Origin: an uncultured Bdellovibrionales bacterium
GTDB lineage: Bacteria; Patescibacteriota; Minisyncoccia; Moranbacterales; UBA1568
DNA length: 64,000 nucleotides
Assembly: GCA_964597355.1 (NCBI GenBank)
Contig: CAZQWS010000005.1
Location: 903-64,902, forward strand
Direction: 5' to 3'
The notes under the pieces were generated by a model. That model did no database searches. It was not told where the DNA came from and saw only the letters and a list, made by a program, of their open reading frames with translations. The translations under genes were made by a program, and so were the position numbers. Shown piece after piece: positions 13,194 to 40,388 of the stretch. How positions within the stretch are numbered: the first letter of the stretch is position 1; each line of letters starts with the position of its first letter.

Positions 13194-13195
13194 CC

Positions 13196-13389: not shown

Positions 13390-13463
13390 TATAGGTTGCA
13401 GGTGAGAACTTGCTTCTGCCCCGATTCCCGGCATATGGGAATTACCTTGAAAAGGAGACTGCG

Positions 13464-14168: not shown

Positions 14169-14223
14169 CGCTTCGGTCCCTTGGGTCTCTGATTTGTATT
14201 CTGACCCTTGGACCCTCAGTCTC

Positions 14224-14274
14224 TTAGACCCTTGGAAACCGCATCGCGGCTACCGGGGGTCTTTTTGTTTTGCT
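14224..14274 (+). repeat. second copy of the 51-bp post-VR hairpin/T-run element
   Basis: Identical to 13143-13193. Confidence 0.6.
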
Positions 14275-14503
14275 ACAGTAAAAGCGGTATGTTGAAAATC
14301 CCTTCCGGCTACGGCTGGCAGAGCAAGATGCTGGAATGAAAGCGGATGAGAGCCGGAGCAGATACCAACTTCTTCGGGAGAACGCTTTTGTTTCAAAAAA
14401 TATATTGCGTTGGTGTCTTGAGCTTGAGGACTTCGAGGTCCCGCATACGATACAGCTCTGAGAGTAGTCGAGGAGCAGTGGAACGGACGGCTCAAGGCAC
14501 GGA

Positions 14504-14620
14504 ATCTTCGCCGTGAATGTCAACTGGAACTCGGACAACCTTAAGTGGAACGTCAACGATTGGAACCTCGATGAGAATGACAGGTGGAACGCCAAGAACC
14601 AGGTCGTCTGTCCAGGCCAC
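14504..14620 (+). repeat. DGR template repeat (TR)
   Basis: Truncated copy of the target 3' end lacking the N-terminal gene body and start codon; encodes '...IFAVNVNWNSDNLKWNVNDWNLDENDRWNAKNQVVCPG' with 8 AAC + 2 AAT codons exactly at the positions that vary in VR1/VR2. Confidence 0.9.
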
Positions 14621-14638
14621 GCACAAAGTTTCTCTCGC

Positions 14639-14989
14639 CTATTTCGGCGGGAGTTTTGTTTCGAGGCCTTTCTTCCAACCGCCAAGCATCCGGCCTGTTT
14701 CGTTCAACTCCATTGAAAGAGTAGAATACTTCTTGTGATCAATGAGTTTATTTTCCCAACCAAGCTGAAGAAAAAACTTTATGATATCTACCTTTCCGAC
14801 GGTGGCTGTTAAATAGGCTATTTTTTGTTCTGATTTGGTATACTGAGCTCGAAAGATATACTCGAGAGCTTCAAGAAAAATTGCATCTACTTTACCGCCA
14901 AAAGTATAGCGATGGGTTTTGGGAATATGCGGAACACACTGAAGCCACAAATTATATGAAAGTTTTAACTTCTGAACCACTGGCAACAC
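14639..14989 (-). CDS. avd: DGR accessory variability determinant (Avd), four-helix-bundle / 23S rRNA-IVS protein family
   Basis: ~113-116 aa. The pattern 'PKTHRYTFGGKVDAIFLEALEYIF...KIAYLTATVGKVDIIKFFLQLGWE...ETGRMLGGWKKGLE' parallels Bordetella phage Avd ('PRKHGVAREMFLKCLLGQVELF...EVGRILGSWIARVNRK'). Likely start GTG 14980 preceded by AGGTG SD; it lies between TR and RT but on the opposite strand. Confidence 0.7.
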   Translation of the reverse strand: MLPVVQKLKLSYNLWLQCVPHIPKTHRYTFGGKVDAIFLEALEYIFRAQYTKSEQKIAYLTATVGKVDIIKFFLQLGWENKLIDHKKYSTLSMELNETGRMLGGWKKGLETKLPPK

Positions 14990-14993
14990 CTGC

Positions 14994-15002
14994 GGGGGGG
15001 GG
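14994..15002. repeat. G9/C9 homopolymeric tract between divergent avd and RT
   Basis: Nine consecutive G (14994-15002) ~5 nt upstream of the avd SD on the minus strand and inside the open N-terminal extension of the RT frame. Confidence 0.8.
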
Positions 15003-15076
15003 TATTAGAGGCATATCGAAAACGTAAAAAATTAGACATCGCTTACCATGATATCATTTCTCTCGACAACCTCCTC

Positions 15077-16048
15077 TTGGCTTGGCAATCCTTTGTGAAA
15101 GGAAAAAGACAAAAGAAAGACGTTCAGGAATTTGAACTTCATTTGATGGATAACCTGATAGATCTTCGCGAGTCGTTCAAAACCAAAACCTATACCCACG
15201 GTTCCTACCATGCCTTCAAAGTAAATGATCCAAAGCCGAGAGATATTCACAAAGCAAGGGTGAAAGATCGAGTTCTTCATCATCTTCTCTATCAAGCTCT
15301 CTCACTCTTCTTCTTCAAGCGCTTCATTCATGACTCTTATTCTTGCCAGGATGGCAAAGGCATTCACAAGGCTTTACTCAGGTTTGAAACTTTCTCAAGG
15401 AAAGTTTCCAAGAACCATACGAAACAGTGTTTTGTCTTGAAATGCGACATCCGCAAGTTTTTCGCGAGTATTGATCAGGCAATACTTCTCAAGATTCTCG
15501 AAGAGTGGATTGAAGACAAAGAGGTACTGTGGCTTCTCAAAAGAGTGATACAGAGCTTCTGGATCCCGGATCACCCGCCCGAACGTACCAGTTCGGTACG
15601 GGCGGGAGTCCGGGATGACACAAAGAGAGGATTACCCCTGGGCAATCTGACATCCCAGCTTCTGGTGAATATCTATCTGAATGAGTTTGACCAGTTTGTG
15701 AAGCATGTTCTTAAAGTACGGCATTATATCCGGTATGCCGATGACTTTGTAATCCTCTCGCACGACAAGAGTGAACTTCAAACACTACTTATCAAGCTTC
15801 AAACCTTTCTCAAGTTGAGGCTTAATCTTGACCTTCACCCGAACAAAGTCTCAATAGAGACTCTTGGAAGTGGAGTAGACTTCTTGGGTTGGGTGCATTT
15901 TCCTGATCACAGAGTATTACGAACGGTAACGAAGCGGAGGATGATGAAGAAGGTGAATCCGAAGAATATTGCTTCGTACTTGGGAATGCTTGATTGGGGA
16001 AATGGGTGGAAATTAAAACAATTGATAGAAGATTTGTTTGACTTCTAG
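15077..16048 (+). CDS. DGR reverse transcriptase
   Basis: RT motifs: 'LLAWQSFVKGKRQKKDVQEF' (DGR RT N-terminus), 'PKPRDIHKARVKDRVLHHLLY', motif 4 'LPLGNLTSQLLVNIYL' (DGR-specific [LIV]GxxxSQ) and motif 5 'RYADDFVIL' (YxDD). The frame stays open upstream to 14969 with RT-like residues ('LEAYRKRKKLDIAYHDIISLDNLLL') but no in-frame ATG/GTG; TTG 15077 is the track start. Confidence 0.9.
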   Translation: MAWQSFVKGKRQKKDVQEFELHLMDNLIDLRESFKTKTYTHGSYHAFKVNDPKPRDIHKARVKDRVLHHLLYQALSLFFFKRFIHDSYSCQDGKGIHKALLRFETFSRKVSKNHTKQCFVLKCDIRKFFASIDQAILLKILEEWIEDKEVLWLLKRVIQSFWIPDHPPERTSSVRAGVRDDTKRGLPLGNLTSQLLVNIYLNEFDQFVKHVLKVRHYIRYADDFVILSHDKSELQTLLIKLQTFLKLRLNLDLHPNKVSIETLGSGVDFLGWVHFPDHRVLRTVTKRRMMKKVNPKNIASYLGMLDWGNGWKLKQLIEDLFDF

Positions 16049-16082
16049 GTAAAAAGCTGCTATACTGGTAGAGTAAATGAAG

Positions 16083-26885: not shown

Positions 26886-29111
26886 ATGGGTGAAAGTATA
26901 CAGGAACAATTGCGAGCGTTGAGTGGCCAAATACGCCGACCAGAGATCTCTGCAGAAGAGGCAATTTCTTCGGCTGAATCGCCGTCTCATGTGGTGGTAG
27001 GTAGTGTTGCTGGAGAGATGGTCCATGCTCGTGGAGGGGTTTTGATTAACCTTGAAGTTGAACGACAGAAGCGTTCTAGTGAAGTCGAAGTCGGGAAAGT
27101 AAATACAGTACACGGCAGTCCAGAGACTGAACTAGGAGTAGCAGATCAATTGCTTCGCAAAGGCGACATTTTTACTAATCCGGAGACAGGAGCCAGACAA
27201 ATCATCGAGGGAATCAGGAGAGAGGGTGCTACCAAGATGGTTTTGTTTACCAATGAACTCGAACCCGGCGTGCGTGCGGAACCAGGGGAAGTTATTCGTC
27301 AACTGCCGTTTGAGAACTTTGAGGTGCAGCGCAAAGCTGGAGGATTCATGGAATGGAAACCGGTTTACGAGCAAGAATTTGATGAGATTTTTGATACCTG
27401 TCAGGAAGCGTTTGAGGCTGTTAATGTTCTAGAATTACAGCGTACTAAAGAACACACACCCGAATCTTTGGAAGTAGTGACAAGAGTAGAAGAGTTGGCG
27501 GCTGATATTAGTGTTCTTGAAGAGATGTGGGACATAGCGAAAGGAATGGAGAATCAGAAAGCCGCGATTAAGGAAAAGCTTGACATTCTCGATCGCCTGA
27601 AAGAGACAGTGGCTCTGTTGCCGGAATCGCTGACTCAATCGTATGCTCTTCTTAAAAAAGTTCAGGATGAGTGGAAGCACGGACATAGGGATGATGAGGA
27701 AGAACCTATCGAGGATGGGGTGGTTGATAATAAACAGAAAACCAAAAAGGGATCAATCTGGAGGAACCATCGTGAAACTCTCCGCAAAGAAGATGGTGCC
27801 GGTAAGGGTCGTGTACGGGATATGGAAGGTTTGAATGTGGCAGTGAGTGGGGAGAAGGTGGCAGAGAAAACGAGGAGAGAAGCACGTCGAGGAGAAGTCC
27901 ATCAACCGATGATAGATTTTCATGCCTACCGAACAAGCACAGAGGAATTGGAAACCCTTTGGAGTGATGAAACTATCCCACTTGCAGCGTGGATTGATAC
28001 TATCCGACAAGAGCAGGCAGACCTCGCTGTGGTGATAAATGAACTGGAGCGCCTGGGTGGAATAGGGCGCTGGGAGGAAGCACTTGAGTCTCTTGGTGCT
28101 GGTTATCAGCAGCTTACCCTGAAAGCCGATCGTGAATCGGTGGCCCAATACTTGGATAATCTCGATACCATCTTTATCAAAAGGAAAACGATCAAAAAGA
28201 AGGATCAAATGGCTGAAGCAGAGAAAGCGACCAGAACACAACGATTCGTTGAAGAGAGGCCGAAATTGAAAGAAATATTGTTCAAATATTACGGTATTCT
28301 CCGAACGGGTGAAGCAGTCATTAATGAGTTACGCCAGGCAGCATTGCAAAGAAATGAGATAGAGGGAGAAGTTCCAGCTTCACCAAAAAGAAATGAGAGG
28401 AGGGAACAATCCCATGAAAGGATGCCAAACAACAACAAAATTCAGTCTATGCTTTTCGAAGCGAGGGTGCTTCTTGCTGATTGGAGTGAACTGCGTCAGA
28501 GCGTAGATCCAAAGAAAAGGACAGTCTTCGATCAGGCTGTAAAAAAACGTCTTGGGATTACTCGGTTACCGCAGTTTGACTTTCAAGTACGGTGGATAGA
28601 AACGCAGAGTGAGCGAGACGACTGGCGAACGTCGGAAGGGAGGGAAATGTTTGTGAAGCTGGATGACCAACTCAGGAAGTATGGGCTCATTGTGGCGGCC
28701 TGTCGACGCGAAGTTGGCAAGTTTAGGAAAAAATCAAAAAAACCTGGACGTCCTACCGCAACCGTTGGTTCGAGATCGCTTATCGTTGAGCAGGCTTCAA
28801 AGAGCATGGGTGAAGTCTGGGAGAATACGAATTCGAAGTTAAAGGAAGAGCTTTTGACTGGATTGCAAGCATTGGAAACTCAAAAAAATGAAGATGCTGA
28901 ATCTGCATTCGAAATTTTGAAAGATTCCGGTATACCTCCTGAAGATCAAGGAACGGTTGTGATACAAACGCTGGCACCGGCATTTAATGAAGAAGTAAAG
29001 AGGATGCTCAGGTATGTCAATATACAGCTGCCACCTGCTGAGATGGCTGAATTTACCCAAGGCTTACTCAGTGTTAATCCAACAAAGGAAAACGATGATG
29101 TCGGAAAATAA
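26886..29111 (+). CDS. hypothetical protein, 741 aa, highly charged / coiled-coil
   Basis: No recognisable catalytic motif; E/K/R-rich heptad-like segments. Confidence 0.5.
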   Translation: MGESIQEQLRALSGQIRRPEISAEEAISSAESPSHVVVGSVAGEMVHARGGVLINLEVERQKRSSEVEVGKVNTVHGSPETELGVADQLLRKGDIFTNPETGARQIIEGIRREGATKMVLFTNELEPGVRAEPGEVIRQLPFENFEVQRKAGGFMEWKPVYEQEFDEIFDTCQEAFEAVNVLELQRTKEHTPESLEVVTRVEELAADISVLEEMWDIAKGMENQKAAIKEKLDILDRLKETVALLPESLTQSYALLKKVQDEWKHGHRDDEEEPIEDGVVDNKQKTKKGSIWRNHRETLRKEDGAGKGRVRDMEGLNVAVSGEKVAEKTRREARRGEVHQPMIDFHAYRTSTEELETLWSDETIPLAAWIDTIRQEQADLAVVINELERLGGIGRWEEALESLGAGYQQLTLKADRESVAQYLDNLDTIFIKRKTIKKKDQMAEAEKATRTQRFVEERPKLKEILFKYYGILRTGEAVINELRQAALQRNEIEGEVPASPKRNERREQSHERMPNNNKIQSMLFEARVLLADWSELRQSVDPKKRTVFDQAVKKRLGITRLPQFDFQVRWIETQSERDDWRTSEGREMFVKLDDQLRKYGLIVAACRREVGKFRKKSKKPGRPTATVGSRSLIVEQASKSMGEVWENTNSKLKEELLTGLQALETQKNEDAESAFEILKDSGIPPEDQGTVVIQTLAPAFNEEVKRMLRYVNIQLPPAEMAEFTQGLLSVNPTKENDDVGK

Positions 29112-30741
29112 ACCAGGACTCACACCAGAGCTCCAGGCCAAACTCAGTGCTCTGGCAGCCAAAAGTAAAGAGGGTTTCCGTCAGATCGCGGACGACACTA
29201 TGCAACGCATGGATGCAGCTCGAGTGGCTACGGAAGAAACAGCTACCCCGCCCCGTGTTCAGGGGGAGGAGTCAGGACTACCTAGCTCCGATGATCCAAT
29301 AACTGTAGGTCAGTCTGGAGAAAGGGCAGATCAGAATGATCATCACAGGATAGAAGATACAGTGATCTTCTCAGAGGTGAATCGGGATAATCTGGAAAAA
29401 GATATTCGAGAGAAAACGGATTATCGCGGCAAGTTGCTAGCAGTAAGAAAGAGTCTTGGTGCTTTAGGTGGTATTTGTCGTGAAATCAGCGATCGGAAAG
29501 GTTGGTCCATATTGGTGGAAGTGGTAAAGGATTTGCCTGAAAAGAACCTTATTGACCAAGTTTATTGGAAGAAAAAGTTCGGCTGGACAGATAAACAGTT
29601 GGATGCGTTGAATGCTAATAAACAGGATGAAGTTGTATCAGCCAAGGAGTTAGAATATCTCTTTCTCTCGTTGCATGATTTGTTAGCTGCGAGTCAGCGA
29701 GTGTTGTTTGAATTACGCCAATCCCAGAAAACAAGACAAGATATCGATGGTGATAAAGAAGTGCTTACGCGACGGGTATCGTTTGCAGAGAGACTAAAGC
29801 GTGTTTATACTCTTGCTGAGGAGTGGGAAAAACTTATGATTCAGTTTGGTCAGGAGCCGAATCGATTTTATGAGGCAGTGGGCATAGAACTTAATCAGAA
29901 ACGTATTCTGAATGTGAAACACTTTGTTGATGAATTGGAAGAGCAAGGCAAACAACATGATTGGAAGGGAGAGGCATCAAAAGGGGATAAGACGGACGCG
30001 GTGAAAAAACTGAGCTATCTGGAAGTGCAAGTGGCTGCGGCGAGAGCAGTTATTGGAAAACTGAAGCAACAGTTACCTAAGGAGGATCAAAAAACGCCAG
30101 TCTCCTCTCCTGTTGCCACAGAACCCGCCGTGTCCTCGTCCCCTGATGCTATTCCCCCCACTCCCTTTGTTGTACCAGAACCAATTACAGCCCAACCGAG
30201 AAATGCTGCTTCACCAGACAAACCGCATCTTTCTCATCTTGATATCGAAAATGGGTTATTGAATCTCAAACAGCACGACAAAGAACTCTGGTACCGAGGA
30301 CCATCGGGTGAGTGGTTTATCGTTCGTCCGACACGTAATCAAGATGTGTTTGAACTCTGGCAACCAGGTGACATGATGAGTCGCCATCATTATCGTGAGC
30401 TGGCAAGTTGGCTGTATGCTAGAAATGTCACTTTTGCTGGGAAGAAAAAACAACCAGAAAACATGGCTGATCCATCGAAAGAGGAACGGCGTGAAGCGCA
30501 AAAGCAACTTAAGAGAATACTAGAGCATAAACTCACTTTGTTTGCTGAGCGTATGGACACACATCTGCGTCAGGAAAATCCGAGCTTGAGTTACGCAAAG
30601 CGTCGGGGGCGTATTTTGTCCCAACTACCAGAGTTCGCCGAGCAGGTGATTGAGCATTTCGGAAAAGGATTGACTTTGTCGAGCTCGGAACAAGAGGCTA
30701 TGATAGAGGAAAATACAGCGTCAATAAAAATACAAAGATAA
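29095..30741 (+). CDS. hypothetical protein, ~548 aa, coiled-coil with Pro/Ser-rich linker
   Basis: ATG 29095 with AAGGA SD (overlaps upstream stop by 17 nt); 'PVSSPVATEPAVSSSPDAIPPTPFVVPEP' linker. Confidence 0.5.
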   Translation: MMSENKPGLTPELQAKLSALAAKSKEGFRQIADDTMQRMDAARVATEETATPPRVQGEESGLPSSDDPITVGQSGERADQNDHHRIEDTVIFSEVNRDNLEKDIREKTDYRGKLLAVRKSLGALGGICREISDRKGWSILVEVVKDLPEKNLIDQVYWKKKFGWTDKQLDALNANKQDEVVSAKELEYLFLSLHDLLAASQRVLFELRQSQKTRQDIDGDKEVLTRRVSFAERLKRVYTLAEEWEKLMIQFGQEPNRFYEAVGIELNQKRILNVKHFVDELEEQGKQHDWKGEASKGDKTDAVKKLSYLEVQVAAARAVIGKLKQQLPKEDQKTPVSSPVATEPAVSSSPDAIPPTPFVVPEPITAQPRNAASPDKPHLSHLDIENGLLNLKQHDKELWYRGPSGEWFIVRPTRNQDVFELWQPGDMMSRHHYRELASWLYARNVTFAGKKKQPENMADPSKEERREAQKQLKRILEHKLTLFAERMDTHLRQENPSLSYAKRRGRILSQLPEFAEQVIEHFGKGLTLSSSEQEAMIEENTASIKIQR

Positions 30742-30749
30742 GAGTCGTT

Positions 30750-33700
30750 ATGCCAGAGAATGGAGATGAAATTTTTAAGAGGGATCAGATCGCAGCAAGA
30801 AAAATTGCTGAGGAGCTTTTGGGTGATGCTCCAACAGTGGGGGATGTTCAGGCTGTACACACTCCTCAGACATCAGATATGTCCGCAGATCCAACGTTGA
30901 CCACGGCTTCAATCGATGCTCAGAGACCATTGAGACGGAAAACAAACAGAGGCTCGGGTGTTGGTCCAAAAGCTCAACAAACTCGAGTTAGGCAACCTTC
31001 TTCGAATGCTTCTGTAACGGCTAGCGCTTCTACTCCCGTATCGCCATCTAAACTAGAACCGGTACTTCCTGTTGCACCTGCTCCGGCTATCATGTCGCAC
31101 CCCGAACCAATTCCAGCGCCCACTCCAACCTCTGGACCAGAACCGAATATTCCGGATGCCATTGTGGATACATCCGAGAAGAAAGGTTGGACCACAGAGC
31201 GACTCTTGGATGAAATTTCTGATGGAGGGGTGTTTGTGTTGGTGAGTTCCGACAAGGGAACGAGGGCGATGTATCGTCGGAAGGGAGATGATTTCTTTTT
31301 GGTGGGTAAAACTAAAGAAAGCCAAGTTCCAGCCGAGAGGATCATCGGATTACTCAGTAATGCTGGCAAGTGGGATATAGATCTGATCGGAGATCACTCA
31401 AAAGAGCTGCCGATTTTGAATGATGTGGTTACGCCTGGGAATACTGATAACCAACGGGAAGGATTAGCGGGAGCAGACTTTGTTTTGGAATTACCTACTG
31501 AGGGGGAAACATTTTTCTATCGAGATAAAGATGGGGTGGAGTTTGGGGTTAGTTTGGCAGCTACCGGAGACTTTGTTTTAGTCGTAGTCAATACGGGTAA
31601 GGAGCGCCTAGTCGATGAGGTCAAACTTCAGGCTTTGGCCGAAAAAAATGAATGGCAACGGTTTGAACGCGCGCAGCCATCAGAAACAGCGATAGAACGA
31701 GTTGTTCCTGAAGAAGAGTTACGTAAAGCAGCGGAGGTCGTGGGCCAAACGAGGACAGATTTTGTGCGAGTTGAGAGTGAACAGAAGGGTGCTCTTGAAC
31801 GATTGAGCCGTATATTTCGCAGCTTGCGAGGCAAAGAAGAATTGAATCCAGAAATTCGTCAGTACTGGGAGGCGTATGAAAGCGCGCTGGTTGTGTGGCA
31901 AAGTTTGAAGATTGAACAATTGAAGCAAAGCGACCTTCCCCCAGAACTTTTAAAGAAGGAGATTGCTGGATTAATTCGTGAGTCAGAGTTTGACGAGGCG
32001 GAACGACTGGATGATGCCAAACGGGAATTACGACTCAAAGCACAGAAACCACTATTTGAAAAAGCTAAAACATTATGGAGAAGTACGCTGCATAATGAAT
32101 TTGATGGGGAGAATCCTGGAGGCAAACAGTGGCGGGATTGGCCTATGGTGATGATAGGAGGGACTGCCCTTGCTGGGGAAGCGCTGTATCGAGGTGTCAA
32201 AGCAACAGGAGAAGGCTACAACAAGCTCATGCGAACCAAGGGAGGGAAGATAACCATGATGGCGGCTGGTGGAGCAGCTCTTGGGACAGCGATACTTTTC
32301 TCGGGTGGAGCGGCGGCCAGTATGGCCGTGGTGATGCTCGGGGCCAAGCGAGCGGTAGCAGGAGCCGGTCTAGCGGTAGCAGCTGAGGGAGTTCTGGACT
32401 TTGGGGCGGCTCAGCTTAGGAAGCGGCGGGCCAATAAACAGGGACAGGAATTTATTGAAGACTCTCTCGAAAGTATAGAGGGACAAATAATTGAAGACCA
32501 GATTAATCTTGGTGATCAGGCGTCCGAGCGTGATGTTACGGAAGAAATATTGAAAAAGTTGGAGACCTACCTTAAGGAAGACGTAAACAAGCGAGCGTAC
32601 CAGGAATTCTACAAACGAAGAGTGGGCCATAGAGGCCGGAAGAGCTTGGCTATTTTGGCTGGAGCTGTTCTTGGATCGGGAGCGGCACAGATGCTTTTCC
32701 CAGATAACACAGGGGCAGCGGGGAGAATGTCCGGTTTCCTATTGGGTGAGTCGAGTGCTGTAGCGGCGGGGGATGCTTCGGGAGTGCCTACTCAGAAATT
32801 TCAGTTTCTGGCACGGCAAATTGAAGAAGCGAATAACCCAGGCAATCAAAGCAGTAGTGGTTCAATCACGCCTCCATTTACAGCAGGAAGACACTTGATT
32901 CCAGTTCAGGGTGTGGTTATCGAGAATGGGAAAAATTTGGCTAGTAATGGACTGTTTGGCGAGCGGACGATAGTGCAAGGAGATACGCTTTGGAAGTATG
33001 CAGTTGAGGGAGGAAAGGCGGTTGGGTTGGAATCAGATCAACAAAACCGTTTTGCGAGTCTCGTCCGTGAAAAAATCAACGAGAAACTTGCCAGCATAAA
33101 CCTGGATGACGCCAAGGCAGCTGGCTTTGTGCCAAATAAAGATGGAGTACTGACTGCTGATTATATTCGTGCTGGAGAGAAGCTTGATCTTGGGAAAATT
33201 TTGAGTGCCGATGAAATAAAAGCCTTGGCAGAAGAAGTGAAGTCAGTTCCAGAAACCACCACATCAACTCCTCCTGGAGGAGTGGTTAAGATTTCGGAAT
33301 CAACAGAACCGAGAGTTGCTGCAGCCATCGCGGAGGCTCCACGAGAAGCTGGAACATCACCGACAGATGTGGCAGAGGTTACGCTTAGTACTGCCTCGCC
33401 AACACCAAGTCTCCAGGAGCTTGCTACCAGTAACAAGGGAGTGACGGAATACATCAAAGGATTACCACAAGCTGAACAGGTGGAGGTATTCCGTACCATG
33501 CGCCGCACTGTACGTGATCTTTTCAATACACCGGAAATTTCTATCTATGGAAATTACGACATGAACTATGATTTGAGTGAACACCCTGAAATGGCCAGGG
33601 TCTCTCTCGCACAGGTTTTGGAGGATCATAAGACGCTCAGTAGTCGGGCTTTCTATATGTATAATCGATCTCTCAATCCACTGCACTGGACGCAGATGCA

Positions 33701-33857
33701 AGAGCTAGTGAAGTTTTCCGAAGGAACCGCCAAGATATTGGGCGAAAAGCTAGCTACACCTTTTGAGCGTGAGACTATCGAACAGTACGTGCTTCGTATG
33801 GCTGTGATAGCCAAAGAAACAAATAAAGTATTGCCAGGCCTCCATATGCTAAAATAA
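30750..33857 (+). CDS. hypothetical large protein, 1035 aa (Pro-rich N-terminus, coiled-coil, Gly/Ala-rich membrane segments)
   Basis: Hydrophobic Gly-zipper-like segments 'MMAAGGAALGTAILFSGGAAASMAVVMLGAKRAVAGAGLAVAAEG' and 'LAILAGAVLGSGAAQMLF'. Confidence 0.5.
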   Translation: MPENGDEIFKRDQIAARKIAEELLGDAPTVGDVQAVHTPQTSDMSADPTLTTASIDAQRPLRRKTNRGSGVGPKAQQTRVRQPSSNASVTASASTPVSPSKLEPVLPVAPAPAIMSHPEPIPAPTPTSGPEPNIPDAIVDTSEKKGWTTERLLDEISDGGVFVLVSSDKGTRAMYRRKGDDFFLVGKTKESQVPAERIIGLLSNAGKWDIDLIGDHSKELPILNDVVTPGNTDNQREGLAGADFVLELPTEGETFFYRDKDGVEFGVSLAATGDFVLVVVNTGKERLVDEVKLQALAEKNEWQRFERAQPSETAIERVVPEEELRKAAEVVGQTRTDFVRVESEQKGALERLSRIFRSLRGKEELNPEIRQYWEAYESALVVWQSLKIEQLKQSDLPPELLKKEIAGLIRESEFDEAERLDDAKRELRLKAQKPLFEKAKTLWRSTLHNEFDGENPGGKQWRDWPMVMIGGTALAGEALYRGVKATGEGYNKLMRTKGGKITMMAAGGAALGTAILFSGGAAASMAVVMLGAKRAVAGAGLAVAAEGVLDFGAAQLRKRRANKQGQEFIEDSLESIEGQIIEDQINLGDQASERDVTEEILKKLETYLKEDVNKRAYQEFYKRRVGHRGRKSLAILAGAVLGSGAAQMLFPDNTGAAGRMSGFLLGESSAVAAGDASGVPTQKFQFLARQIEEANNPGNQSSSGSITPPFTAGRHLIPVQGVVIENGKNLASNGLFGERTIVQGDTLWKYAVEGGKAVGLESDQQNRFASLVREKINEKLASINLDDAKAAGFVPNKDGVLTADYIRAGEKLDLGKILSADEIKALAEEVKSVPETTTSTPPGGVVKISESTEPRVAAAIAEAPREAGTSPTDVAEVTLSTASPTPSLQELATSNKGVTEYIKGLPQAEQVEVFRTMRRTVRDLFNTPEISIYGNYDMNYDLSEHPEMARVSLAQVLEDHKTLSSRAFYMYNRSLNPLHWTQMQELVKFSEGTAKILGEKLATPFERETIEQYVLRMAVIAKETNKVLPGLHMLK

Positions 33858-33873
33858 ACTTAGCTACAAAACT

Positions 33874-34185
33874 ATGAACACTATCGATTACACGCAGCTC
33901 AAAAAAGATTTGATCGAAGAATTGGCTTTGTCGGGACTGACTCCAGAAAAGCAGGACGAACTCTTGGGGAAAATGCTTGAGGCATTGCTCAAGCGGATTT
34001 TTATGAATACGATGGAGCGACTCGGGGAAACTGGAGTAGATGAATATGAAAAGCTCATTGAGAGTAATCCTGAGGAAAAAGCCGTAGCAGAGTTTCTCGA
34101 AGCCAAAATTCCTGATTACAATGCATTTGTGCAAGGAGTGATCGATCAGTTCAAAAAAGACATCAAGGCTGTAGCAGCCGCTTGA
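33874..34185 (+). CDS. hypothetical small acidic protein (103 aa)
   Basis: ORF with SD, immediately after the 1035-aa gene. Confidence 0.4.
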   Translation: MNTIDYTQLKKDLIEELALSGLTPEKQDELLGKMLEALLKRIFMNTMERLGETGVDEYEKLIESNPEEKAVAEFLEAKIPDYNAFVQGVIDQFKKDIKAVAAA

Positions 34186-34214
34186 ATGTTTAATAACTGA
34201 TTGTTAATTGTTGA

Positions 34215-34634
34215 TTGAAATGTATGTCTGAGGAAATACTGGAACCAAGAGGAGAAAGTGTGCCGGTAGCGGGAGGGGACAAGCCAGAAAGTGTGCCTGG
34301 AACCCTTCCTACTCCGGAAAAAGAAACTGGGAATGAAGGAGTAACCGAACGAGCGAGCGAACAGTATAGTAAAATCCTCTCTCAAGTACAGCCAGGGAGT
34401 GCCAATACTAGTGATGATGAGGTAGAAGGGGATGCCAACACAGTAGGCGCTCTCGAAGAGGCTGAGAAGAAAGCACATGCTCTCGTCGAGTTGGCTCAGG
34501 TAAAAGGGGTGGCACATGCAGTACGCGTAGCCAAGCGCATGAATGATCTCTATGTGCTTGACACCATGCACGATGAGTTAGCTGATAAACTGTATGACGG
34601 ATTGGTATCCAAGGGATTGATTGTGAAGGAATAG
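34215..34634 (+). CDS. hypothetical small acidic protein (139 aa)
   Basis: ORF in the same orientation within the cluster. Confidence 0.4.
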   Translation: MKCMSEEILEPRGESVPVAGGDKPESVPGTLPTPEKETGNEGVTERASEQYSKILSQVQPGSANTSDDEVEGDANTVGALEEAEKKAHALVELAQVKGVAHAVRVAKRMNDLYVLDTMHDELADKLYDGLVSKGLIVKE

Positions 34635-34767
34635 AGAACCCAGAAGGAGTCAGAAAGACTGAATAAATAGTCAGAAGCATTTTATTCTTTCTGAAGCAGA
34701 ATAGTTTCGCGGTCGAACAAAAGTTTTTCTTCCTGTATCATACAGTTGTGAAAAAAGAAAAATAAAT

Positions 34768-37278
34768 ATGGAAACGAGTGGGGGATGGGATTTGAACGTT
34801 GTTTTGGTGCCGCTTGCCTTTTTCTCGGGAGGGCTTGCTTTGGTTATGGGGCTCGTCTTGATTGTCCGGAGTTTTTTCCTTATGCGCTTTGAAGTGGCTC
34901 AATCACTCAATACTGATCTCGAGGTGGTGAAAGTGAGTCGGGTCAAAACTGATGAAACGAAGCCAAAAGGAGGAGAGGAATGGCGAGAAGAGATTAAGGG
35001 GATGGAGCAACTACTAACCTCTTTGGCTAATCTCAAGCGCAATGTTCCGTGGTGGCAAAAACTCCTCTTTACCTTGCCGCATCTTATTTTTGAAATCGCC
35101 AACCCCTCGTCCAGTGAGGAAATATTTTTTTACCTTTCAATTCCTAAGCGATTCAGAGAGAGTGTCGAGAAACAGATTCATAGTTTTTTCCCGCATGCCG
35201 TGATCGAAAAAGTACCTGAGTACACTATTTTCTCTCCAGCTGGGGAAACTGCCGTGTCGACGCTTCGGCTCAAAGAAAGTGCCGCTTTGCCACTAAAGAC
35301 CTACAAGACGCTCTCAGTTGACCCTCTGAATGAAATATCGAATGCGCTTTCTAAGCTCGAAACGGTGGCTGAGGGAGCTGCGATTCAGATTGTCCTTGCA
35401 CCTGCCCCAGCAGGTTGGCGTAAAACCAGTCGTTATATCGCTGAGAAGATGCAGGAGGGAAAACGCCTCAAAGACGCACGACCTGAATCAATAGCGGGAA
35501 AATTAGGAAAAGATGTATTAAAGAATACTGGTCGGGCGCTGTTGCAACAGAATCTTGGAAGCAAGCAGGAGGAAGAAAAAGTAGTGGCACTTACTCCTGA
35601 GGAACAGGAGCTAGTCAAAATAATTGATGCCAAAGGAAGTCAGGCAGCCTTTTCAGCTAATATCCGTTTGCTAGCTTCCGCCAAAACCAAAGAACGAGCC
35701 GAAGATATCTTGGCGCATATGGAGAATGCGTTTAGTCAGTTTGAAAACCCTGAAATCAATGCCTTTCGAGTCCAGCGCAAGCATCGAGACAAACAAACAG
35801 CCTATCACTATATCTTTCGTAATTTTGACCCAGAAGCGAGTATCCTCCTTTCGGTGGATGAACTCGCTAGTATCTTTCATTTCCCTATTTCGACGACCGA
35901 AACTCCCAAAATAAAATGGCTGAAAGCTGGAAGTGCTCCGCCCCCAGTCAATATTCCAAAAGATGGGATCCTCTTGGGCTATAACGAATACCGTGGAGTC
36001 AAATCTGAAGTACGGATTACTGAGAGTGACCGTCGTCGTCATATGTATGTAGTTGGGCAAACCGGTGTCGGTAAATCGAACTATCTCCAAGAAATGGCTA
36101 AGAAGGATGCCAAGAGCGGCAAGGGATTTTGCTTTATTGACCCTCATGGGGATGCGATCGAGGATATCTTGACCGCCATCCCCAAGGAGCGAGCTGAGGA
36201 TGTGATTGTCTTTGATCCGAGTGACACCGAACGGCCGATGGGTATCAACATGCTCGAATACGATTCTAAACATCCAGAACAAAAGACTTTCGTCATCAAC
36301 GAAATGATCGGCATCTTTGATCAACTTTATGATATGAAGACCACCGGAGGGCCGATGTTCGAACAGTATATGCGTAACGCCATGCTGCTTATCATGGAAG
36401 ATCCTGAAAGCGGCTCGACCCTAATGGAAATCCCCAAGGTCTTGGCGGATGAAGAATTCCGGCGCTACAAACTGACCAAGTGTACGAACCCGATCGTGCG
36501 GGATTTCTGGCTCAAGGAGGCGGAGAAGGCGGGTGGGGAAGCAGCACTCGCCAATATGGTACCGTACATTACTTCCAAGTTGACGGCGTTTATCAGTAAC
36601 GACATGATGCGGCCGATTATCGCGCAGCAAAAGAGCACGCTCAACTTTCGTGAAATCATGGACGGCGGTAAAATTGTTCTCATTAATCTTTCCAAGGGGA
36701 AAATCGGGGAAATCAATGCCCGACTTTTGGGGATGGTGATCGTGGGAAAAATCCTCATGGCAGCCCTCTCACGGGTTGATATACCAGAAGCAGAGCGTAA
36801 GGATTTCTACCTCTATCTGGATGAATTCCACAATGTTACGACGACCTCAATCGCTCAGATTCTTTCCGAAGCCAGAAAATATCGGCTCGTCCTTATCCTT
36901 GCGCATCAGTTTATTGCTCAGCTTAAGGAAGAAATTTCAAAGGCAGTGTTTGGTAATGTTGGATCGCTGACGGCGTTTCGCGTCGGACCGGAAGATGCGG
37001 AATTTCTTGAAAAACAATTCGCCCCGGTCTTCACCGCCCAAGATATCGTCAATGTTGATAACTATCAGTGTTTCGTTCGTCTCCTCATGAATAATGAACT
37101 CACTAAGCCTTTCAACATGAAAACCTATCCGCCAACGATCGGGGATCAGGAAGTAGCTAATGCTTTGAAAGAACTTTCACGTCTCCGTTTTGGTCGCGAT
37201 GCCACTATCGTGAATCGGGAAATCATGACTCGTATCCGTATGGCTGAAGCCACAAAACCTACACACTCACCTTTGTAG
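34768..37278 (+). CDS. TraD/TraG/VirD4-family type IV secretion coupling protein-like P-loop ATPase (N-terminal TM)
   Basis: N-terminal TM 'VVLVPLAFFSGGLALVMGLVLIV'; Walker A 'YVVGQTGVGKSNYL' followed by 'FIDPHGDA' (coupling-protein IDPKGD-like), Walker B 'LYLDEFHNV', C-terminal 'ARKYRLVLILAHQFIAQL' (TraG-D_C-like RKYG..Q..QL). Confidence 0.65.
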   Translation: METSGGWDLNVVLVPLAFFSGGLALVMGLVLIVRSFFLMRFEVAQSLNTDLEVVKVSRVKTDETKPKGGEEWREEIKGMEQLLTSLANLKRNVPWWQKLLFTLPHLIFEIANPSSSEEIFFYLSIPKRFRESVEKQIHSFFPHAVIEKVPEYTIFSPAGETAVSTLRLKESAALPLKTYKTLSVDPLNEISNALSKLETVAEGAAIQIVLAPAPAGWRKTSRYIAEKMQEGKRLKDARPESIAGKLGKDVLKNTGRALLQQNLGSKQEEEKVVALTPEEQELVKIIDAKGSQAAFSANIRLLASAKTKERAEDILAHMENAFSQFENPEINAFRVQRKHRDKQTAYHYIFRNFDPEASILLSVDELASIFHFPISTTETPKIKWLKAGSAPPPVNIPKDGILLGYNEYRGVKSEVRITESDRRRHMYVVGQTGVGKSNYLQEMAKKDAKSGKGFCFIDPHGDAIEDILTAIPKERAEDVIVFDPSDTERPMGINMLEYDSKHPEQKTFVINEMIGIFDQLYDMKTTGGPMFEQYMRNAMLLIMEDPESGSTLMEIPKVLADEEFRRYKLTKCTNPIVRDFWLKEAEKAGGEAALANMVPYITSKLTAFISNDMMRPIIAQQKSTLNFREIMDGGKIVLINLSKGKIGEINARLLGMVIVGKILMAALSRVDIPEAERKDFYLYLDEFHNVTTTSIAQILSEARKYRLVLILAHQFIAQLKEEISKAVFGNVGSLTAFRVGPEDAEFLEKQFAPVFTAQDIVNVDNYQCFVRLLMNNELTKPFNMKTYPPTIGDQEVANALKELSRLRFGRDATIVNREIMTRIRMAEATKPTHSPL

Positions 37279-37432: not shown

Positions 37433-37493
37433 AACCGCGATTCACCGAGTTCTGGAGCAGTGCTTCTTATGAAGCGTTCAACAAGGAGATCTC

Positions 37494-37931
37494 ATGATGA
37501 ATGATATCGTGTGTGTCCGCGAACGGAGCACTTGGCTCGAGATTGATTGGTTGGAGGAAATCCCTCCTTTCAAGATTTTCGGGTTTGCTATTTGGCCAGG
37601 GAGTAGCAAAAAGCGGGTCACTCGGACAGTCCGGCTCTATCCAAGGAATTTCGGACTCGACCCGCGGACGGCGACCCGCGAGCAAGTCATAGCCTGTGCC
37701 GAAAAAGAAGGCTATGAGTATTGTCCCACGAAGGTGGTGGAAGTTATCCGCAGCGCTGCCCTGGTGCAGCGGCGGGGATACCTGGTGTTTCCGTTGAGCG
37801 ATGGGACGCAGATCGTTCTCTTTGCTAATGGTAGTGGCGCCCAACTCTTCCTCGATGAGGATCTCACACCAACGACGATTGAGAATTCTCATGGTTGGTC
37901 GATCGTAATGGCTATCCCGGACAACGACTAA
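37494..37931 (+). CDS. hypothetical protein, 145 aa, GC-rich (~55%)
   Basis: ATG with AAGGAG SD; shares promoter/leader module with DGR target 1; no recognisable domain. Confidence 0.55.
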   Translation: MMNDIVCVRERSTWLEIDWLEEIPPFKIFGFAIWPGSSKKRVTRTVRLYPRNFGLDPRTATREQVIACAEKEGYEYCPTKVVEVIRSAALVQRRGYLVFPLSDGTQIVLFANGSGAQLFLDEDLTPTTIENSHGWSIVMAIPDND

Positions 37932-37969
37932 TGAGTAAGTCGATAGTCCCCGAACCAAAAGTTTAAACT

Positions 37970-38005
37970 CCCGTGTGTAGCAATCGCTACACACGGGATC
38001 ATTTT
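37970..38005. terminator. bidirectional terminator hairpin cccgtgtgtagc-aatc-gctacacacggg + TTTTTG
   Basis: 12-bp perfect stem between convergent genes. Confidence 0.7.
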
Positions 38006-38018: not shown

Positions 38019-40388
38019 TTAGGGCAATTGAAAGGAGAAAGTACCGCTGGGGCGAGCGATGAGGAGTTCGTTGTTTCTGGTTACGTTGATAGTCCTTGCA
38101 TCACTGAGCGAATTATGAAAGTACTGGGCGATGAGGGTGCCGGTAGAAGACCAGCGTACAATCCGTTTTTCTTTGGGATCGAGAGCATAGACATCACCAT
38201 TTTTTGGATCGATGGTAAGAGCTTTGGTTTCGAGGGGTGTTTGGGTTCCGGCGAACGCAGCTTCAGTTTTACGACCGCTGCTATAGAGGGCTGGGTGACC
38301 GTCTGGGAGTACGATAGCTACATTTTCAAAGATGGACAAGGGTGAAATGGGGTGGATAGTGAGCGTTTCTTTGGACCATCGTGTGGGAGCGCCAAAACCT
38401 CCTTCGACTCGAGGGAAACGATAGAGAGTGCCAGCTTTGCGATCGAGTACATAGAGATAGGTGAGATAGGTTCCAAGAGCATCAATCTGAGTATTGCCCG
38501 GAAGAGGGAGAGTATTTTGCTCAAACTTTTTGTTAGCGACGGTAAAAATATACAGTGTTCCGGATTGACCGAGGAGGAACAGTGCATCGAGGTCATCCAT
38601 GGCAGTAGCTAAACGAATAGGTTCAGGTAGAGCAGTAGACTCGCTAGTTTTTAGGTTAACGATACGCTCGCTACGGATATCGAAAGGAGTATTATTGATA
38701 AGACTGAGTGCGATAGGTTCGCCATTGAAAGAAGAGATCACACGGCTTTCACTGAGACGGACTGCGAGTGGTTCATTTTCTGATGTAATTGATGAAGGTG
38801 TGAGAGGCGCAACAGTATCGGATAGCGAAGGAACTACTACTGCTGGTTGCTCCCAGACGGGAGAGCGGTTGAGGTAGAACCATGTTCCGAGGCCAATGGT
38901 GACAAGAACTACGCCACTACCAGCCATGATCTGCCGGGTGCGTTTGCTTTGATCTTGCCAGAATATGAGACTGCGTTGCCAGGCGGCTTGGATATATCGG
39001 AGAGTACTATGGTTCACTTGAATGAGTACCTGCTTAGTTTGACCTATCCAGGCAACGAACGTATCGAAGGGAAAAGAGATCGATGGTTTTGGTAGTCGGG
39101 GCAGGGTAACTTTTTTCCAATTGTCTTTTAGGTTTTCTTTGAGAGAAAAGGAAGGGAGTGACGAAGCAGAAGTAGTTGTAGTAGCTTCGGTTGGAGGGAC
39201 TGGAAGAGTGATTGCTGATGATTTTCTAGTCTCACGAATTTTGCGTATATGGCGGAGGGAGGAACGGATGCGGCGCAGTCCCTTGCGTCCGGAACTAGCC
39301 ATCTGGTCTTCAACACCGCTTATGAAAAAAGCAATGTTTTTGCGACTTCGGCGACCAAAACGACGAAGCTTTTCGCGACTAAGTTGCCATGATTGTGAAA
39401 GTGAGTGAGACCAAAGAGTCAGTCGAGTTTTCCATGGCTCCTCCTCTTGTTCAGCTTCTTCTTCTCCATGGACATAAATATGGCCAGTTTTTTTGTCGAT
39501 GTATTCTTGCTGGTGTTCTTTTGGGGGGGTAGTCGGTGGGGGGGATGTAAAAGCCTTGAGGCGGGATGATCGAGCTTTTTCAAATGTCTGGCCACTCCAT
39601 ACATTGAGAAGTTTAGTGGCTTCTGTTTCTTCTCCCAAAGCCTCCTTTGTCTGTTTGGGAGTTGGGGTGGTTATCGGGGCAGCTGAGACGTTGATTACCA
39701 CGGCTCCAGCGATGGGGAGCTCGTTTATGAGGGCAGTATGGAGAAACTGTTCAAAGCCTTTCTGACCAAGCCGGGCTAAATTTTTCTTAAGGTCTTCTGG
39801 GGTAAAGAGAGTCCAGACGGCAGGGGAGAGAGCGAGGAGTACGTCGCTTTCAATGAGCTTACCACTCGAGACCTCGGTGAAGGTTTTGAGAGGGTGGGGT
39901 TCAGTTGAGACTTCCGCCAATCCATCACTAATAGGCCGCAAGGTCTGCTCGCGAACGAGAGCCAGTACCCCATCGCCAGTTGCCGAGAAATGAACGGTGT
40001 TATCAGCAATAGCGCCCAAGATTCCATGCAGGTGTCCAAGCCACGAAACATTGCCTTCCTTGGCAATTTCAGCGAGAGCAACATTGACTTTGTGGAGAGT
40101 GGTTTCGAAACTATCACTTACCTCTCTCCGCGGGTTGGTGAAGTATTCTTTTTTAGCGACGGAGGCAAGAAAGTTAACAATGTAGGCCGCGTCTTCGTCG
40201 TGTATCTCCACTTCAAAGAAGCCAAAAAGCGTACCAAGCGGTTTGCCAGCGACATTGTCACTTTTGTAGTGGAAAGCAATGATATAAGGTTCGGCATGCC
40301 GCCCTGACCCAACCGCAATAGCATTGAAAACACACTGAACGGAGGATGGCGATTTCCCTTCCTTCCGGCGTGAGACTCGTTCTTTCAT
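38019..40388 (-). CDS. hypothetical membrane protein, 789 aa (cytoplasmic N-terminal domain with weak PP2C-like features, single TM, large extracytoplasmic C-terminal domain)
   Basis: TM 'IMAGSGVVLVTIGLGTWFYL'; N-terminal 'IAVGSGRHAE...VHFSATGDGVL' faintly PPM-like; C-terminal beta-rich repeats. Confidence 0.5.
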   Translation of the reverse strand: MKERVSRRKEGKSPSSVQCVFNAIAVGSGRHAEPYIIAFHYKSDNVAGKPLGTLFGFFEVEIHDEDAAYIVNFLASVAKKEYFTNPRREVSDSFETTLHKVNVALAEIAKEGNVSWLGHLHGILGAIADNTVHFSATGDGVLALVREQTLRPISDGLAEVSTEPHPLKTFTEVSSGKLIESDVLLALSPAVWTLFTPEDLKKNLARLGQKGFEQFLHTALINELPIAGAVVINVSAAPITTPTPKQTKEALGEETEATKLLNVWSGQTFEKARSSRLKAFTSPPPTTPPKEHQQEYIDKKTGHIYVHGEEEAEQEEEPWKTRLTLWSHSLSQSWQLSREKLRRFGRRSRKNIAFFISGVEDQMASSGRKGLRRIRSSLRHIRKIRETRKSSAITLPVPPTEATTTTSASSLPSFSLKENLKDNWKKVTLPRLPKPSISFPFDTFVAWIGQTKQVLIQVNHSTLRYIQAAWQRSLIFWQDQSKRTRQIMAGSGVVLVTIGLGTWFYLNRSPVWEQPAVVVPSLSDTVAPLTPSSITSENEPLAVRLSESRVISSFNGEPIALSLINNTPFDIRSERIVNLKTSESTALPEPIRLATAMDDLDALFLLGQSGTLYIFTVANKKFEQNTLPLPGNTQIDALGTYLTYLYVLDRKAGTLYRFPRVEGGFGAPTRWSKETLTIHPISPLSIFENVAIVLPDGHPALYSSGRKTEAAFAGTQTPLETKALTIDPKNGDVYALDPKEKRIVRWSSTGTLIAQYFHNSLSDARTINVTRNNELLIARPSGTFSFQLP

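Follow-up and report, generated by a model that had tools for sequence, protein, structure and literature searches.

A chromosomal VirD4/TrwB-type ATPase with a predicted VirB4-like N-terminal domain and a small partner protein in Patescibacteria

We analysed a stretch of 64,000 nucleotides (nt) of contig CAZQWS010000005.1 (assembly GCA_964597355.1), referred to here as the window, in which six co-oriented open reading frames (ORFs) of 741, 575 (maximal), 1035, 103, 139 and 836 amino acids (aa) occupy positions 26886-37278 of the + strand, as a preliminary description of this DNA had stated. The 836-aa ATPase encoded by the last gene belongs to the VirD4/TrwB lineage of type IV coupling proteins (T4CPs). 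It is a member of a DUF8128-containing T4CP subfamily that shows T4CP sequence motifs and fold, and in the window it has no linkage to a relaxase or to a type IV secretion system (T4SS). Across classes, the acidic 136-aa protein encoded just upstream is the only neighbour tied to the ATPase, and the pairing is obligate. We tentatively favour the view that the locus holds a domesticated orphan T4CP on the chromosome, served by a dedicated adaptor, and that its clients or envelope partners are specific to the lineage.

The ATPase was compared with Pfam, where TrwB_AAD_bind (E-value 4.4e-8), TraG-D_C, T4SS-DNA_transf and DUF87 scored above their cut-offs. DUF87, the central domain of HerA, was just over its threshold, FtsK_SpoIIIE (E 0.11) and HerA_C (E 0.13) fell below theirs, and the VirB4 families AAA_10, CagE_TrbE_VirB and TraC_F_IV gave no match at E up to 1. 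In NCBIfam the ATPase resembled VirD4/TraD-type models and archaeal CedD/CedB only weakly and over part of the length, the scores against the curated TraD/VirD4 models being far under the cut-offs. The motifs GQTGVGKS (aa 430-437), IDPHGD (aa 457-462), DEFHN (aa 685-689) and RKYR..Q..QL (aa 703-719), all listed in the preliminary description, are present and invariant across an alignment of 30 family sequences; the family-invariant catalytic residues are K436, D685 and E686, together with R703 (90% or more), K704, Q714 and Q718. HMMER aligned the P-loop and IDPHGD to GATGTGKS and VDPNGD of TrwB (13.6 bits), while the stretch from DEFHN to RKYR..Q..QL aligned weakly to IDEL / GRKAGL..Q..QL (4.9 bits alone). 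When the profile of the 30 sequences was searched against the PDB sequences, TrwB (6.6e-8), DotL (1.7e-5) and HerA (1e-3) were retrieved and no match to TrwK/VirB4 was obtained at E up to 10. Full-length alignments of the family hold down to 30% identity.

An AlphaFold model of the ATPase calculated on the family alignment had a predicted local distance difference test score (pLDDT) of 85.5 and placed a helical insertion between the two Walker motifs (aa 504-633), in the position of the T4CP all-alpha domain. Foldseek comparison with the PDB showed that TrwB covers the C-terminal half of the ATPase with a template modelling score (TM-score) of 0.64-0.69 and a root mean square deviation of 4-5 Å over about 420 of 437 residues, HerA reaching 0.55 (4d2i, E 3e-12). 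The VirD4/TraD likeness proposed earlier is thus supported by three Pfam models above cut-off, by the precedence of TrwB over HerA in both profile and TM-score, and by homologues in conjugation modules, described below.

A housekeeping DNA translocase or repair helicase of FtsK or HerA type, misread as a coupling protein, is very improbable. DUF87 and the presence of HerA among the Foldseek matches speak for it, as does the position of the gene near cell-envelope and division genes (ftsQ-like, mreB, murA). However, FtsK_SpoIIIE stays below its cut-off, TrwB and DotL outrank HerA, no FtsK accessory domain or HerA N-terminal domain was matched, the modelled N-terminal domain resembles VirB4 instead, and there is no NurA-like nuclease partner. 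The preliminary description was to be given up if the structure placed the ATPase with FtsK/HerA proteins and its neighbours were not conserved with it; the comparison returned a T4CP/VirB4-like fold and some conserved neighbours, which sets the ATPase apart from FtsK and HerA.

The region preceding the motor is publicly annotated as DUF8128 (PF26449), an assignment precomputed on homologues 71-90% identical to the ATPase. Modelled alone, aa 48-398 gave a pLDDT of 85.2 and a predicted TM-score of 0.83, and the top 14 PDB matches of this model were all TrwK/VirB4 (E 5.6e-7 to 1.7e-4, TM-scores 0.41-0.46), the next match being unrelated (E 1e-2). Fold comparison alone found VirB4, as the profile of the N-terminal domain retrieved nothing from the PDB sequences at E up to 10. 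The full-length ATPase also had its top Foldseek matches with VirB4/TrwK, across the whole length (E 5e-15). The models suggest that the ATPase combines a VirD4-like motor with an N-terminal domain of VirB4 type; by sequence the protein fails VirB4 membership despite its N-terminal fold.

These matches bear on the possibility that the protein is a VirB4-like assembly or extraction ATPase, building or remodelling a surface attachment apparatus made of the neighbouring large proteins, which we regard as quite improbable. Its layout, an N-terminal domain of about 350 aa and a C-terminal motor within 836 aa, and its N-terminal fold agree with TrwK/VirB4, as do the full-length top matches; the N-terminal transmembrane helix recalls VirB3-VirB4 fusions, and the large neighbours, in their charge, mosaic structure and rapid evolution, resemble many surface proteins. 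On the other hand, the motor is VirD4-like by sequence and matches neither the VirB4 families nor TrwK within the limits given above, the TM-scores to VirB4 are modest, a plasmid homologue adjoins a bona fide separate VirB4, and outside Moranbacteria the large proteins are not retained alongside the ATPase.

The protein encoded just upstream of the ATPase was investigated with domain-trimmed profiles searched against all ORFs of 85 related loci. A first iteration of the family profile, started from the 139-aa call, had drifted into the ATPase via fused proteins, whereas the domain-trimmed version converged and gave exactly one match in 59 of the 85 loci. In 33 of them the partner is a separate gene ending just upstream of the ATPase, and 32 of these 33 ATPases carry a transmembrane helix; in the other 26 the partner is fused to the N-terminus of the ATPase (ORFs of 850-968 aa), and none of the 26 has the helix. 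Independent public gene calls gave the same picture, with 88 proteins having the helix and no partner domain, 15 fused proteins without helix and one fused protein with it. This natural fusion, of the Rosetta-stone kind, therefore identifies the 136-aa protein as a partner that sits at the N-terminal end of the ATPase and can take the place of the membrane anchor. The N-terminal half of the partner is variable; what is conserved is a helical module of about 55 aa at the C-terminal side, with the pattern KG[IV]..A..VA.K..DPY.LD..HD.L, and no relative of the family was found in Pfam or the PDB.

In 16-17 Uhrbacteria- and Falkowbacteria-type loci the upstream gene encodes another family of 150-190 aa. 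This family also occurs in Komeilibacteria-type genomes, the loci of the three groups together being L019-L032, L062, L070, L071 and L075; it is unannotated and has a disordered N-terminus and a conserved C-terminal '...WLK.IPGVNKFFLEQEAKIKTD'. It was considered as a relative of the 136-aa or DUF5663 proteins, and hhalign found no relation.

The ATPase family is very large, with 5,832 clusters (50% identity) at E<1e-30 and 21,891 at E<1e-3, and the lineage-specific character suggested in the preliminary description does not hold for it; stand-alone VirD4-like genes have, moreover, been reported in Patescibacteria by Quinonero-Coronel et al. 2025 (PMC12102498). The best 120 database matches are all about 830 aa long and 71-90% identical, and the named ones come from Moranbacteria. 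A scan of one genome per species yielded 80 loci spanning Moran-, Uhr-, Falkow-, Komeili-, Doudna-, Nomura-, Taylor-, Staskawicz- and Zambryskibacteria and other groups. The fused ATPase gene occurs in 16-17 Paceibacteria-type loci (including L037) in the order secY-adk-map-ATPase-ndk-beta-CASP/RMMBL RNase, adjoining infC and rplT. Several third-party-annotated metagenome-assembled records with near-identical Moranbacteria-type loci (L006-L009, L019, L021, L022, L027 and others) are titled 'uncultured Bdellovibrionales', 'Gammaproteobacteria' or 'Candidatus Saccharibacteria', names that are probably wrong. Some homologues are much longer, such as P0174 (2006 aa) and P0185 (1584 aa), and bear C-terminal tails of 800-1,200 aa that are Pro/Ala/Gly-rich and of low complexity, with the motifs PPPIGAPPVD and ITGGR.P and the conserved end GEV[YF]VDERGNVI[VI]GE; no Pfam domain was detected in the C-terminal extensions of five such proteins scanned (1,267-2,006 aa), the low-complexity composition having been established on two tails inspected over their whole length.

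Homologues were also found on 244 plasmids, mainly of Streptomyces, Bacillus, haloarchaea and Sulfolobus. On the B. subtilis plasmid NZ_CP154917 (27.5 kb) the homologue is followed by Replic_Relax, TcpC, TcpE and VirB4 (AAA_10, E 8e-116), and on the Embleya plasmid NZ_CP108778 the order is PrgI, VirB4, homologue, Replic_Relax and NlpC/P60. The profile of the N-terminal domain matched both plasmid proteins (E 1e-18 to 2e-32) as well as the phage members of the family. Since the plasmid homologue adjoins a separate VirB4, the DUF8128 architecture fills the coupling-protein slot in monoderm conjugation modules. Bacillus phages carry homologues as well (PHROG 5156, E 6e-95), namely phage G gp156 and proteins of JL, SP-10, Goe26 and TP-84, their genes sitting among early or DNA-metabolism genes; tblastn recovered the homologues of phage G, SP-10, Goe26 and TP-84, phage G gp156 and its relatives aligning at 23% identity over 84%, and Foldseek against BFVD found gp156 again at E 7e-45.

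The chromosomal setting of the ATPase in the window was examined by a Pfam scan of the 36 larger ORFs in the first 46.5 kb, the ORFs past about 46.5 kb (none longer than 483 aa) lying outside it. No relaxase, VirB4, VirB6 or pilin family was matched among these ORFs, in agreement with the preliminary description as regards relaxase, VirB4 and pilin, and no VirB3, VirB6 or VirB8 homologue was found among them. The surrounding genes are of housekeeping type (adk, map, tpiA, fba, gap, murD, murA, mreB, holB and an FtsQ-like POTRA gene), together with two PMT_2 glycosyltransferases, rmuC, an mraY-like gene, prmC and a tRNA cluster. Among the flanks, the two PMT_2 genes, ftsQ-like, holB, rmuC, mraY-like, prmC and prfA recur in relatives, and the same housekeeping genes bracket the locus in six of them.

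A decayed integrated conjugative or mobile element that has lost its other genes is, in this setting, scarcely credible. The closest non-Patescibacterial homologues do lie on conjugative-type plasmid modules, and the upstream large genes differ in number and content between relatives. However, the housekeeping flanks are shared by 12 or more Moranbacteria genomes, the GC content of the locus (0.45-0.49) matches the rest of the window, and no integrase, relaxase or tRNA junction adjoins the block. No att-like direct repeats were found flanking it when the check proposed in the preliminary description was made. In addition, the ATPase is near-universal in the phylum, and its ratio of non-synonymous to synonymous substitution rates (dN/dS) of 0.067 is unlike that of a decaying gene. 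A mobile island was likewise rejected on the absence of att-like repeats and of an adjacent tRNA, the normal GC content and the syntenic flanks.

Comparison with the closest relative, L090, returned dN/dS values of 0.015 for DUF5663 and 0.067 for the ATPase, against 0.08-0.24 for the flanking housekeeping genes and 0.30, 0.30, 0.31 and 0.42 for the 741-aa, 547-aa, 136-aa and 1035-aa proteins respectively. Judged from its residues and rates, the motor is of T4CP-family type, catalytically intact and under strong purifying selection. The DUF5663 protein is the slowest of the gene set, being 99% identical to its counterpart in the closest relative, and the variation of the 136-aa protein is confined to its N-terminal third. 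The 741-aa protein is 70.7% identical to that of the closest relative, and the synonymous rate (dS) of its gene is about 1 over aa 1-500 and 0.11 over aa 528-650, a contrast indicating a recombinant mosaic with replacement by a divergent allele. Along the 1035-aa protein, identity to the closest relative is 97-100% at aa 331-510 and 872-1035 and only 38-57% at aa 601-720, and the stretch aa 752-870 shows a dN/dS of 1.4-2.2, with few substitutions. On the same contigs of more distant relatives, identity is 89-90% for the ATPase, about 71% for the 136-aa protein and 51-52% over 76% of the length for the 1035-aa protein, and the large proteins of L004 and L005 are down at 27-39%. This mosaic pattern fits exposed, interaction-prone segments in the large proteins, and relaxed constraint may also account for it.

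The preliminary description had treated the six genes as one apparatus; across the 85 loci only the 136-aa protein travels with the ATPase, and the synteny check in relatives divided the remaining genes, DUF5663 and the 1035-aa protein being retained in Moranbacteria only and the 741- and 547-aa proteins in the closest relatives only. The 103-aa protein was assigned to DUF5663 (PF18908) with 37.2 bits against a cut-off of 23.7 (E 4.5e-9). DUF5663 occupies the same position in 12 Moranbacteria-type loci plus L077, and lies within 2-8 kb of the ATPase, non-adjacent, in four further loci. DUF5663 and the 1035-aa family accompany the ATPase only in about 12 Moranbacteria-type loci, where the large genes number one to three, and homologues of the 1035-aa protein (20-31% identity) stand directly upstream of DUF5663 in 12 of them.

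The 1035-aa protein, which had only 6 matches in a search of 5.8 billion proteins, begins with a P/S/T-rich N-terminus, and both its helical core and its C-terminal domain are conserved. The Gly-zipper membrane segments attributed to it earlier stand as conserved, Gly/Ala-rich and moderately hydrophobic segments (aa 509-546 and 632-652) with borderline hydropathy and K/R residues, so that membrane spans are plausible rather than proven. Pfam LysM was matched by 1 of 10 members of the family (E 0.01), which may be taken as a lead only. The large upstream proteins carry no signal peptide. The 741- and 547-aa proteins have homologues in the nearest relatives only; for the 741-aa protein they are confined to L004, L005 and L090, with 35-39% identity as against 86-90% for the ATPase. 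No match to the 741-aa protein was found in Pfam, NCBIfam, PHROG or PADLOC, nor to the 547-aa protein in Pfam or NCBIfam. Genes 1 and 2 show weak paralogy (E 0.006), and the profile of gene 2 matches the N-terminal part of a 1255-aa protein of L001 (E 3.4e-12), indicating that genes 2 and 3 are fused in some relatives.

By analogy with TrwB/VirD4, the ATPase would most likely form a ring anchored through its single N-terminal helix to the cytoplasmic side of the membrane, where hydrolysis of nucleoside triphosphates could drive macromolecular substrates, once received, into a membrane conduit. The 136-aa protein would act as an adaptor, docking or regulatory module binding the N-terminal end of the ATPase, and DUF5663 as a second small subunit in Moranbacteria. 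The 1035-aa protein, Gly/Ala-rich and with a LysM-like motif, may be a membrane-embedded envelope partner, and the 741- and 547-aa proteins are possible clients and/or lineage-specific envelope partners of the motor, the exposed parts of the large proteins presumably turning over quickly. Any export might use the Patescibacterial T4SS, encoded at another place on the chromosome, or else the 1035-aa membrane protein. The translocation or host-attachment role raised in the preliminary description is, at this point, something we would infer.

Several observations weigh against an orphan T4CP serving lineage-specific clients. The scanned ORFs of the window include no gene for a channel component, VirB4, relaxase or pilin, and no convincing shared export motif or signal was recognised in the large proteins. 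These proteins are not conserved with the ATPase outside Moranbacteria, and their membership of the operon could reflect lineage history instead of shared function; their gene-wide dN/dS of 0.3-0.4 suits relaxed constraint as well as diversifying selection. In the Uhrbacteria- and Falkowbacteria-type loci the small upstream protein is of unrelated family. A membrane anchor is missing from the fused variants and from the homologues in Bacillus plasmids and phages, and membrane attachment is therefore no constant of the family. Finally, the T4CP homologue of Southlakia epibionticum is reported as non-essential for epibiotic growth, while its T4SS genes are essential (PMC12102498). The Southlakia result argues against a strict T4CP-T4SS partnership; Patescibacteria have about two T4CP-like genes per genome, and the Southlakia one need not be of the DUF8128 type. 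The main text of the Cell 2023 Southlakia paper contains no mention of VirD4 or T4CP.

Part of this evidence speaks for a different explanation, in which the ATPase and its partner have been exapted for a T4SS-independent core function, most plausibly the movement of nucleic acid across or along the membrane (for instance the uptake or handling of host-derived nucleic acid), the large genes being mere neighbours. We consider this possible, if rather doubtful. Quinonero-Coronel et al. 2025 (PMC12102498) count 5,713 VirD4-like genes in 2,918 of 3,035 Patescibacteria genomes (96%), 148 of them near virB4, against virB4 in 2,417 of the 3,035; these VirD4-like genes occur without a relaxase, and exaptation is raised by the authors. 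The dispensability of the Southlakia T4CP homologue where the T4SS is essential and the fused variants lacking the membrane helix point the same way, as do homologues with the full architecture in large Bacillus phages, which have no T4SS. Further support comes from the very strong purifying selection on the ATPase, from the weak NCBIfam likeness to CedD and CedB, which are archaeal DNA-import ATPases, and from the Paceibacteria-type neighbours (adk, ndk, beta-CASP RNase), which are nucleotide/RNA metabolism genes with functions highlighted in a preprint on host-RNA uptake (10.64898/2026.06.21.733656). However, that preprint does not name or implicate such an ATPase, and the Paceibacteria synteny may trace to a single clade and to common descent alone. 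Across classes, the ATPase is accompanied by neither a nuclease nor a nucleic-acid-binding partner. Moreover, the tight operon with DUF5663 and the 1035-aa gene is kept in 12 diverged Moranbacteria loci (ATPase about 67-90% identical), for which a chance neighbourhood is a poor fit.

A bolder proposal, which we hold to be unlikely, is that the ATPase and the 136-aa partner constitute a phylum-wide, T4SS-independent machine derived from a conjugative coupling protein, which would import or process host-derived nucleic acid or export lineage-specific hypervariable surface proteins without any classical T4SS channel, the family then being an evolutionary link between the VirB4 N-terminal domain and the VirD4 motor.

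Orphan T4CP homologues in Patescibacteria have already been published (PMC12102498). Because no mention of DUF8128 or DUF5663 was found in the literature searched, three features appear to be new: an N-terminal domain resembling VirB4, a partner protein occurring either on its own or as a fusion that replaces the membrane helix, and, in Moranbacteria, an operon with hypervariable large proteins. Patescibacteria live in dependence on host cells, with which they exchange macromolecules; their T4SS is essential in the sole genetically tractable species, and the near-universal VirD4-like genes lie apart from that T4SS. The locus defines a conserved two-part unit, the ATPase and a small partner, either free-standing or fused where the anchor would be, and names candidate clients or envelope partners in one lineage. 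If this unit works without a T4SS, it would represent a new use of conjugation machinery; if it feeds the T4SS, the phylum would have its first candidate substrates in the upstream proteins.

The coordinates of the genes and of their main features are collected in Table 1. The start of gene 2 is likely the ATG at 29095 or 29098, giving a protein of 548 or 547 aa and an overlap with gene 1 of 17 or 14 nt, since the gene called in the closest relative encodes 547 aa and shows the same 14-nt overlap. Gene 5 truly starts with the ATG at 34224, from which point on the database protein P0290 is 100% identical; of the sizes given in the preliminary description, those of 741, about 548, 1035, 103 and 836 aa were kept and that of 139 aa was corrected to 136 aa. 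Genes 2 to 6 are separated by gaps of 8, 16, 38 and 133 nt, and with this spacing and the overlap the genes look like one operon. The inverted repeat downstream of the ATPase may mark the operon end; it was left unscored by a consensus terminator scan, and the counts of the consensus promoter/terminator scan equalled the shuffled expectation. The charged nature of the large proteins (D+E+K+R 27-33% of residues) and the acidity of the two small ones (isoelectric points 4.55 and 4.66) were as described before.

Table 1. Genes of the locus and features within them (positions in the window).
Feature	Position (nt)	Position (aa)	Strand	Basis and remarks
Gene 1, 741-aa charged protein	26886-29111		+	ORF call; no signal peptide, no transmembrane segment; genus-level, mosaic
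Gene 2, 547/548-aa charged protein	29098-30741 (maximal ORF from 29014, 575 aa)		+	ORF call
Gene 3, 1035-aa protein	30750-33857		+	ORF call, family alignment
Gly/Ala-rich hydrophobic region of gene 3	32157-32705	470-652	+	Conserved in family
LysM-like GDTLW...AGEKL motif of gene 3	32967-33203	about 740-818	+	Weak
Gene 4, 103-aa acidic helical DUF5663 protein	33874-34185		+	Pfam PF18908
Gene 5, 136-aa acidic partner protein	34224-34634 (maximal ORF from 34215, 139 aa)		+	Domain profile
Gene 6, 836-aa ATPase	34768-37278		+	Pfam, PDB profile search, AlphaFold model, Foldseek
Predicted transmembrane helix of ATPase	34789-34899	8-44	+	Hydropathy, single N-terminal hydrophobic helix
DUF8128 domain of ATPase, predicted VirB4 N-terminal-domain-like fold	34909-35961	48-398	+	Pfam annotation of homologues, model
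Nucleotide-binding domain of ATPase, T4CP-type, helical insertion		about 400-825	+	After Pro-rich linker
Walker A of ATPase	36055-36078		+	Motif
Walker B of ATPase	36811-36834		+	Motif
Inverted repeat, 16-nt arms, 19-nt loop	37384-37434		.	Downstream of ATPase stop codon

The slot downstream of the ATPase varies among relatives, with a HIT-family gene in L001 and extra genes of 483-550 aa in L004 and L005. In the window the real gene in this slot is probably the 145-aa ORF at 37494-37931 on the + strand, to which genes of L004 and L005 in the corresponding position are weakly homologous (E about 1e-5); the 175-aa ORF at 37467-37994 on the - strand, though longer, is probably no gene. A basic protein of 789 aa (isoelectric point 9.3) with one or two hydrophobic segments is encoded at 38019-40388 on the - strand; it gave no match in Pfam, NCBIfam, PHROG, PADLOC or the PDB and is kept at 32-44% identity, usually convergent with the ATPase, in 13 Moranbacteria-type loci. 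Assignment of the locus to a defence system was rejected, as PADLOC returned weak ATPase-domain matches only (mad8 9.5e-14; HerA 1e-3 or weaker) and none for the neighbours.

Elsewhere in the window, a diversity-generating retroelement was recognised at 12200-16050, where the local GC content rises to 0.55. Its reverse transcriptase is encoded at 15077-16048 (RVT_1, E 2.6e-24), and its template repeat lies at about 14490-14630. Two target genes, arisen by tandem duplication, occupy 12471-13100 and 13410-14168 and carry C-terminal variable repeats at 12958-13098 and 14026-14166; where the template differs from the variable repeat closer to it, the template base is nearly always an adenine. Targeting of the ATPase cluster by this retroelement was rejected, as the template repeat matches its two adjacent target genes only.

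Among the known systems, phage G gp156 and its relatives (PHROG 5156) are full-length homologues of the window ATPase; they differ from it in being phage-encoded and in lacking the transmembrane helix and the 136-aa partner. The plasmid proteins WP_345805471.1 (B. subtilis NZ_CP154917) and WP_331738717.1 (Embleya NZ_CP108778) share DUF8128 and the T4CP motor with 24-29% identity over 79-87%, and the Embleya protein has one N-terminal transmembrane helix, as has the ATPase of the window. However, the plasmid homologues lie within T4SS modules (VirB4, TcpC, TcpE or PrgI) with Replic_Relax, whereas the gene of the window is chromosomal and has none of these nearby, and the Bacillus plasmid protein carries a long acidic C-terminal tail that is absent here. 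The 136-aa partner was not found at the two plasmid and two phage loci examined (L086-L089).

The orphan VirD4-like genes of Quinonero-Coronel et al. 2025 (PMC12102498) belong to the same phylum and are nearly all encoded away from virB4, but the available text of that paper makes no mention of the N-terminal domain, of the small partner or of the Moranbacteria operon. An analogy can be drawn with CagZ-Cagbeta (PDB 8dol) and IcmS/IcmW-DotL, in which small helical or acidic proteins, some of them encoded nearby, bind the T4CP as regulators or substrate recruiters, and Cagbeta is among the structural matches of the window ATPase. In contrast, neither the 136-aa nor the DUF5663 protein shows sequence likeness to any solved protein, and adaptors of the CagZ/IcmSW type bind the all-alpha domain or the C-terminal tail, whereas the partner described here is fused N-terminally.

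VirB4/TrwK resembles the ATPase in its two-domain layout and similar length, and VirB4 alone in the PDB matches the N-terminal fold, although there is no match at the sequence level and the TM-scores are modest (0.41-0.46). In canonical T4CPs two transmembrane helices are followed directly by the motor; the ATPase of the window differs from them in having one helix followed by a VirB4-like domain of 350 aa, and in the absence of linkage to a relaxase or T4SS. With TrwB of R388, VirD4, TraD and DotL it shares the P-loop motor, the helical insertion, Walker A, DP.GD, Walker B and RK..L..Q..QL; its N-terminal helix is a putative membrane anchor, and TrwB is its best solved relative by both sequence and fold.

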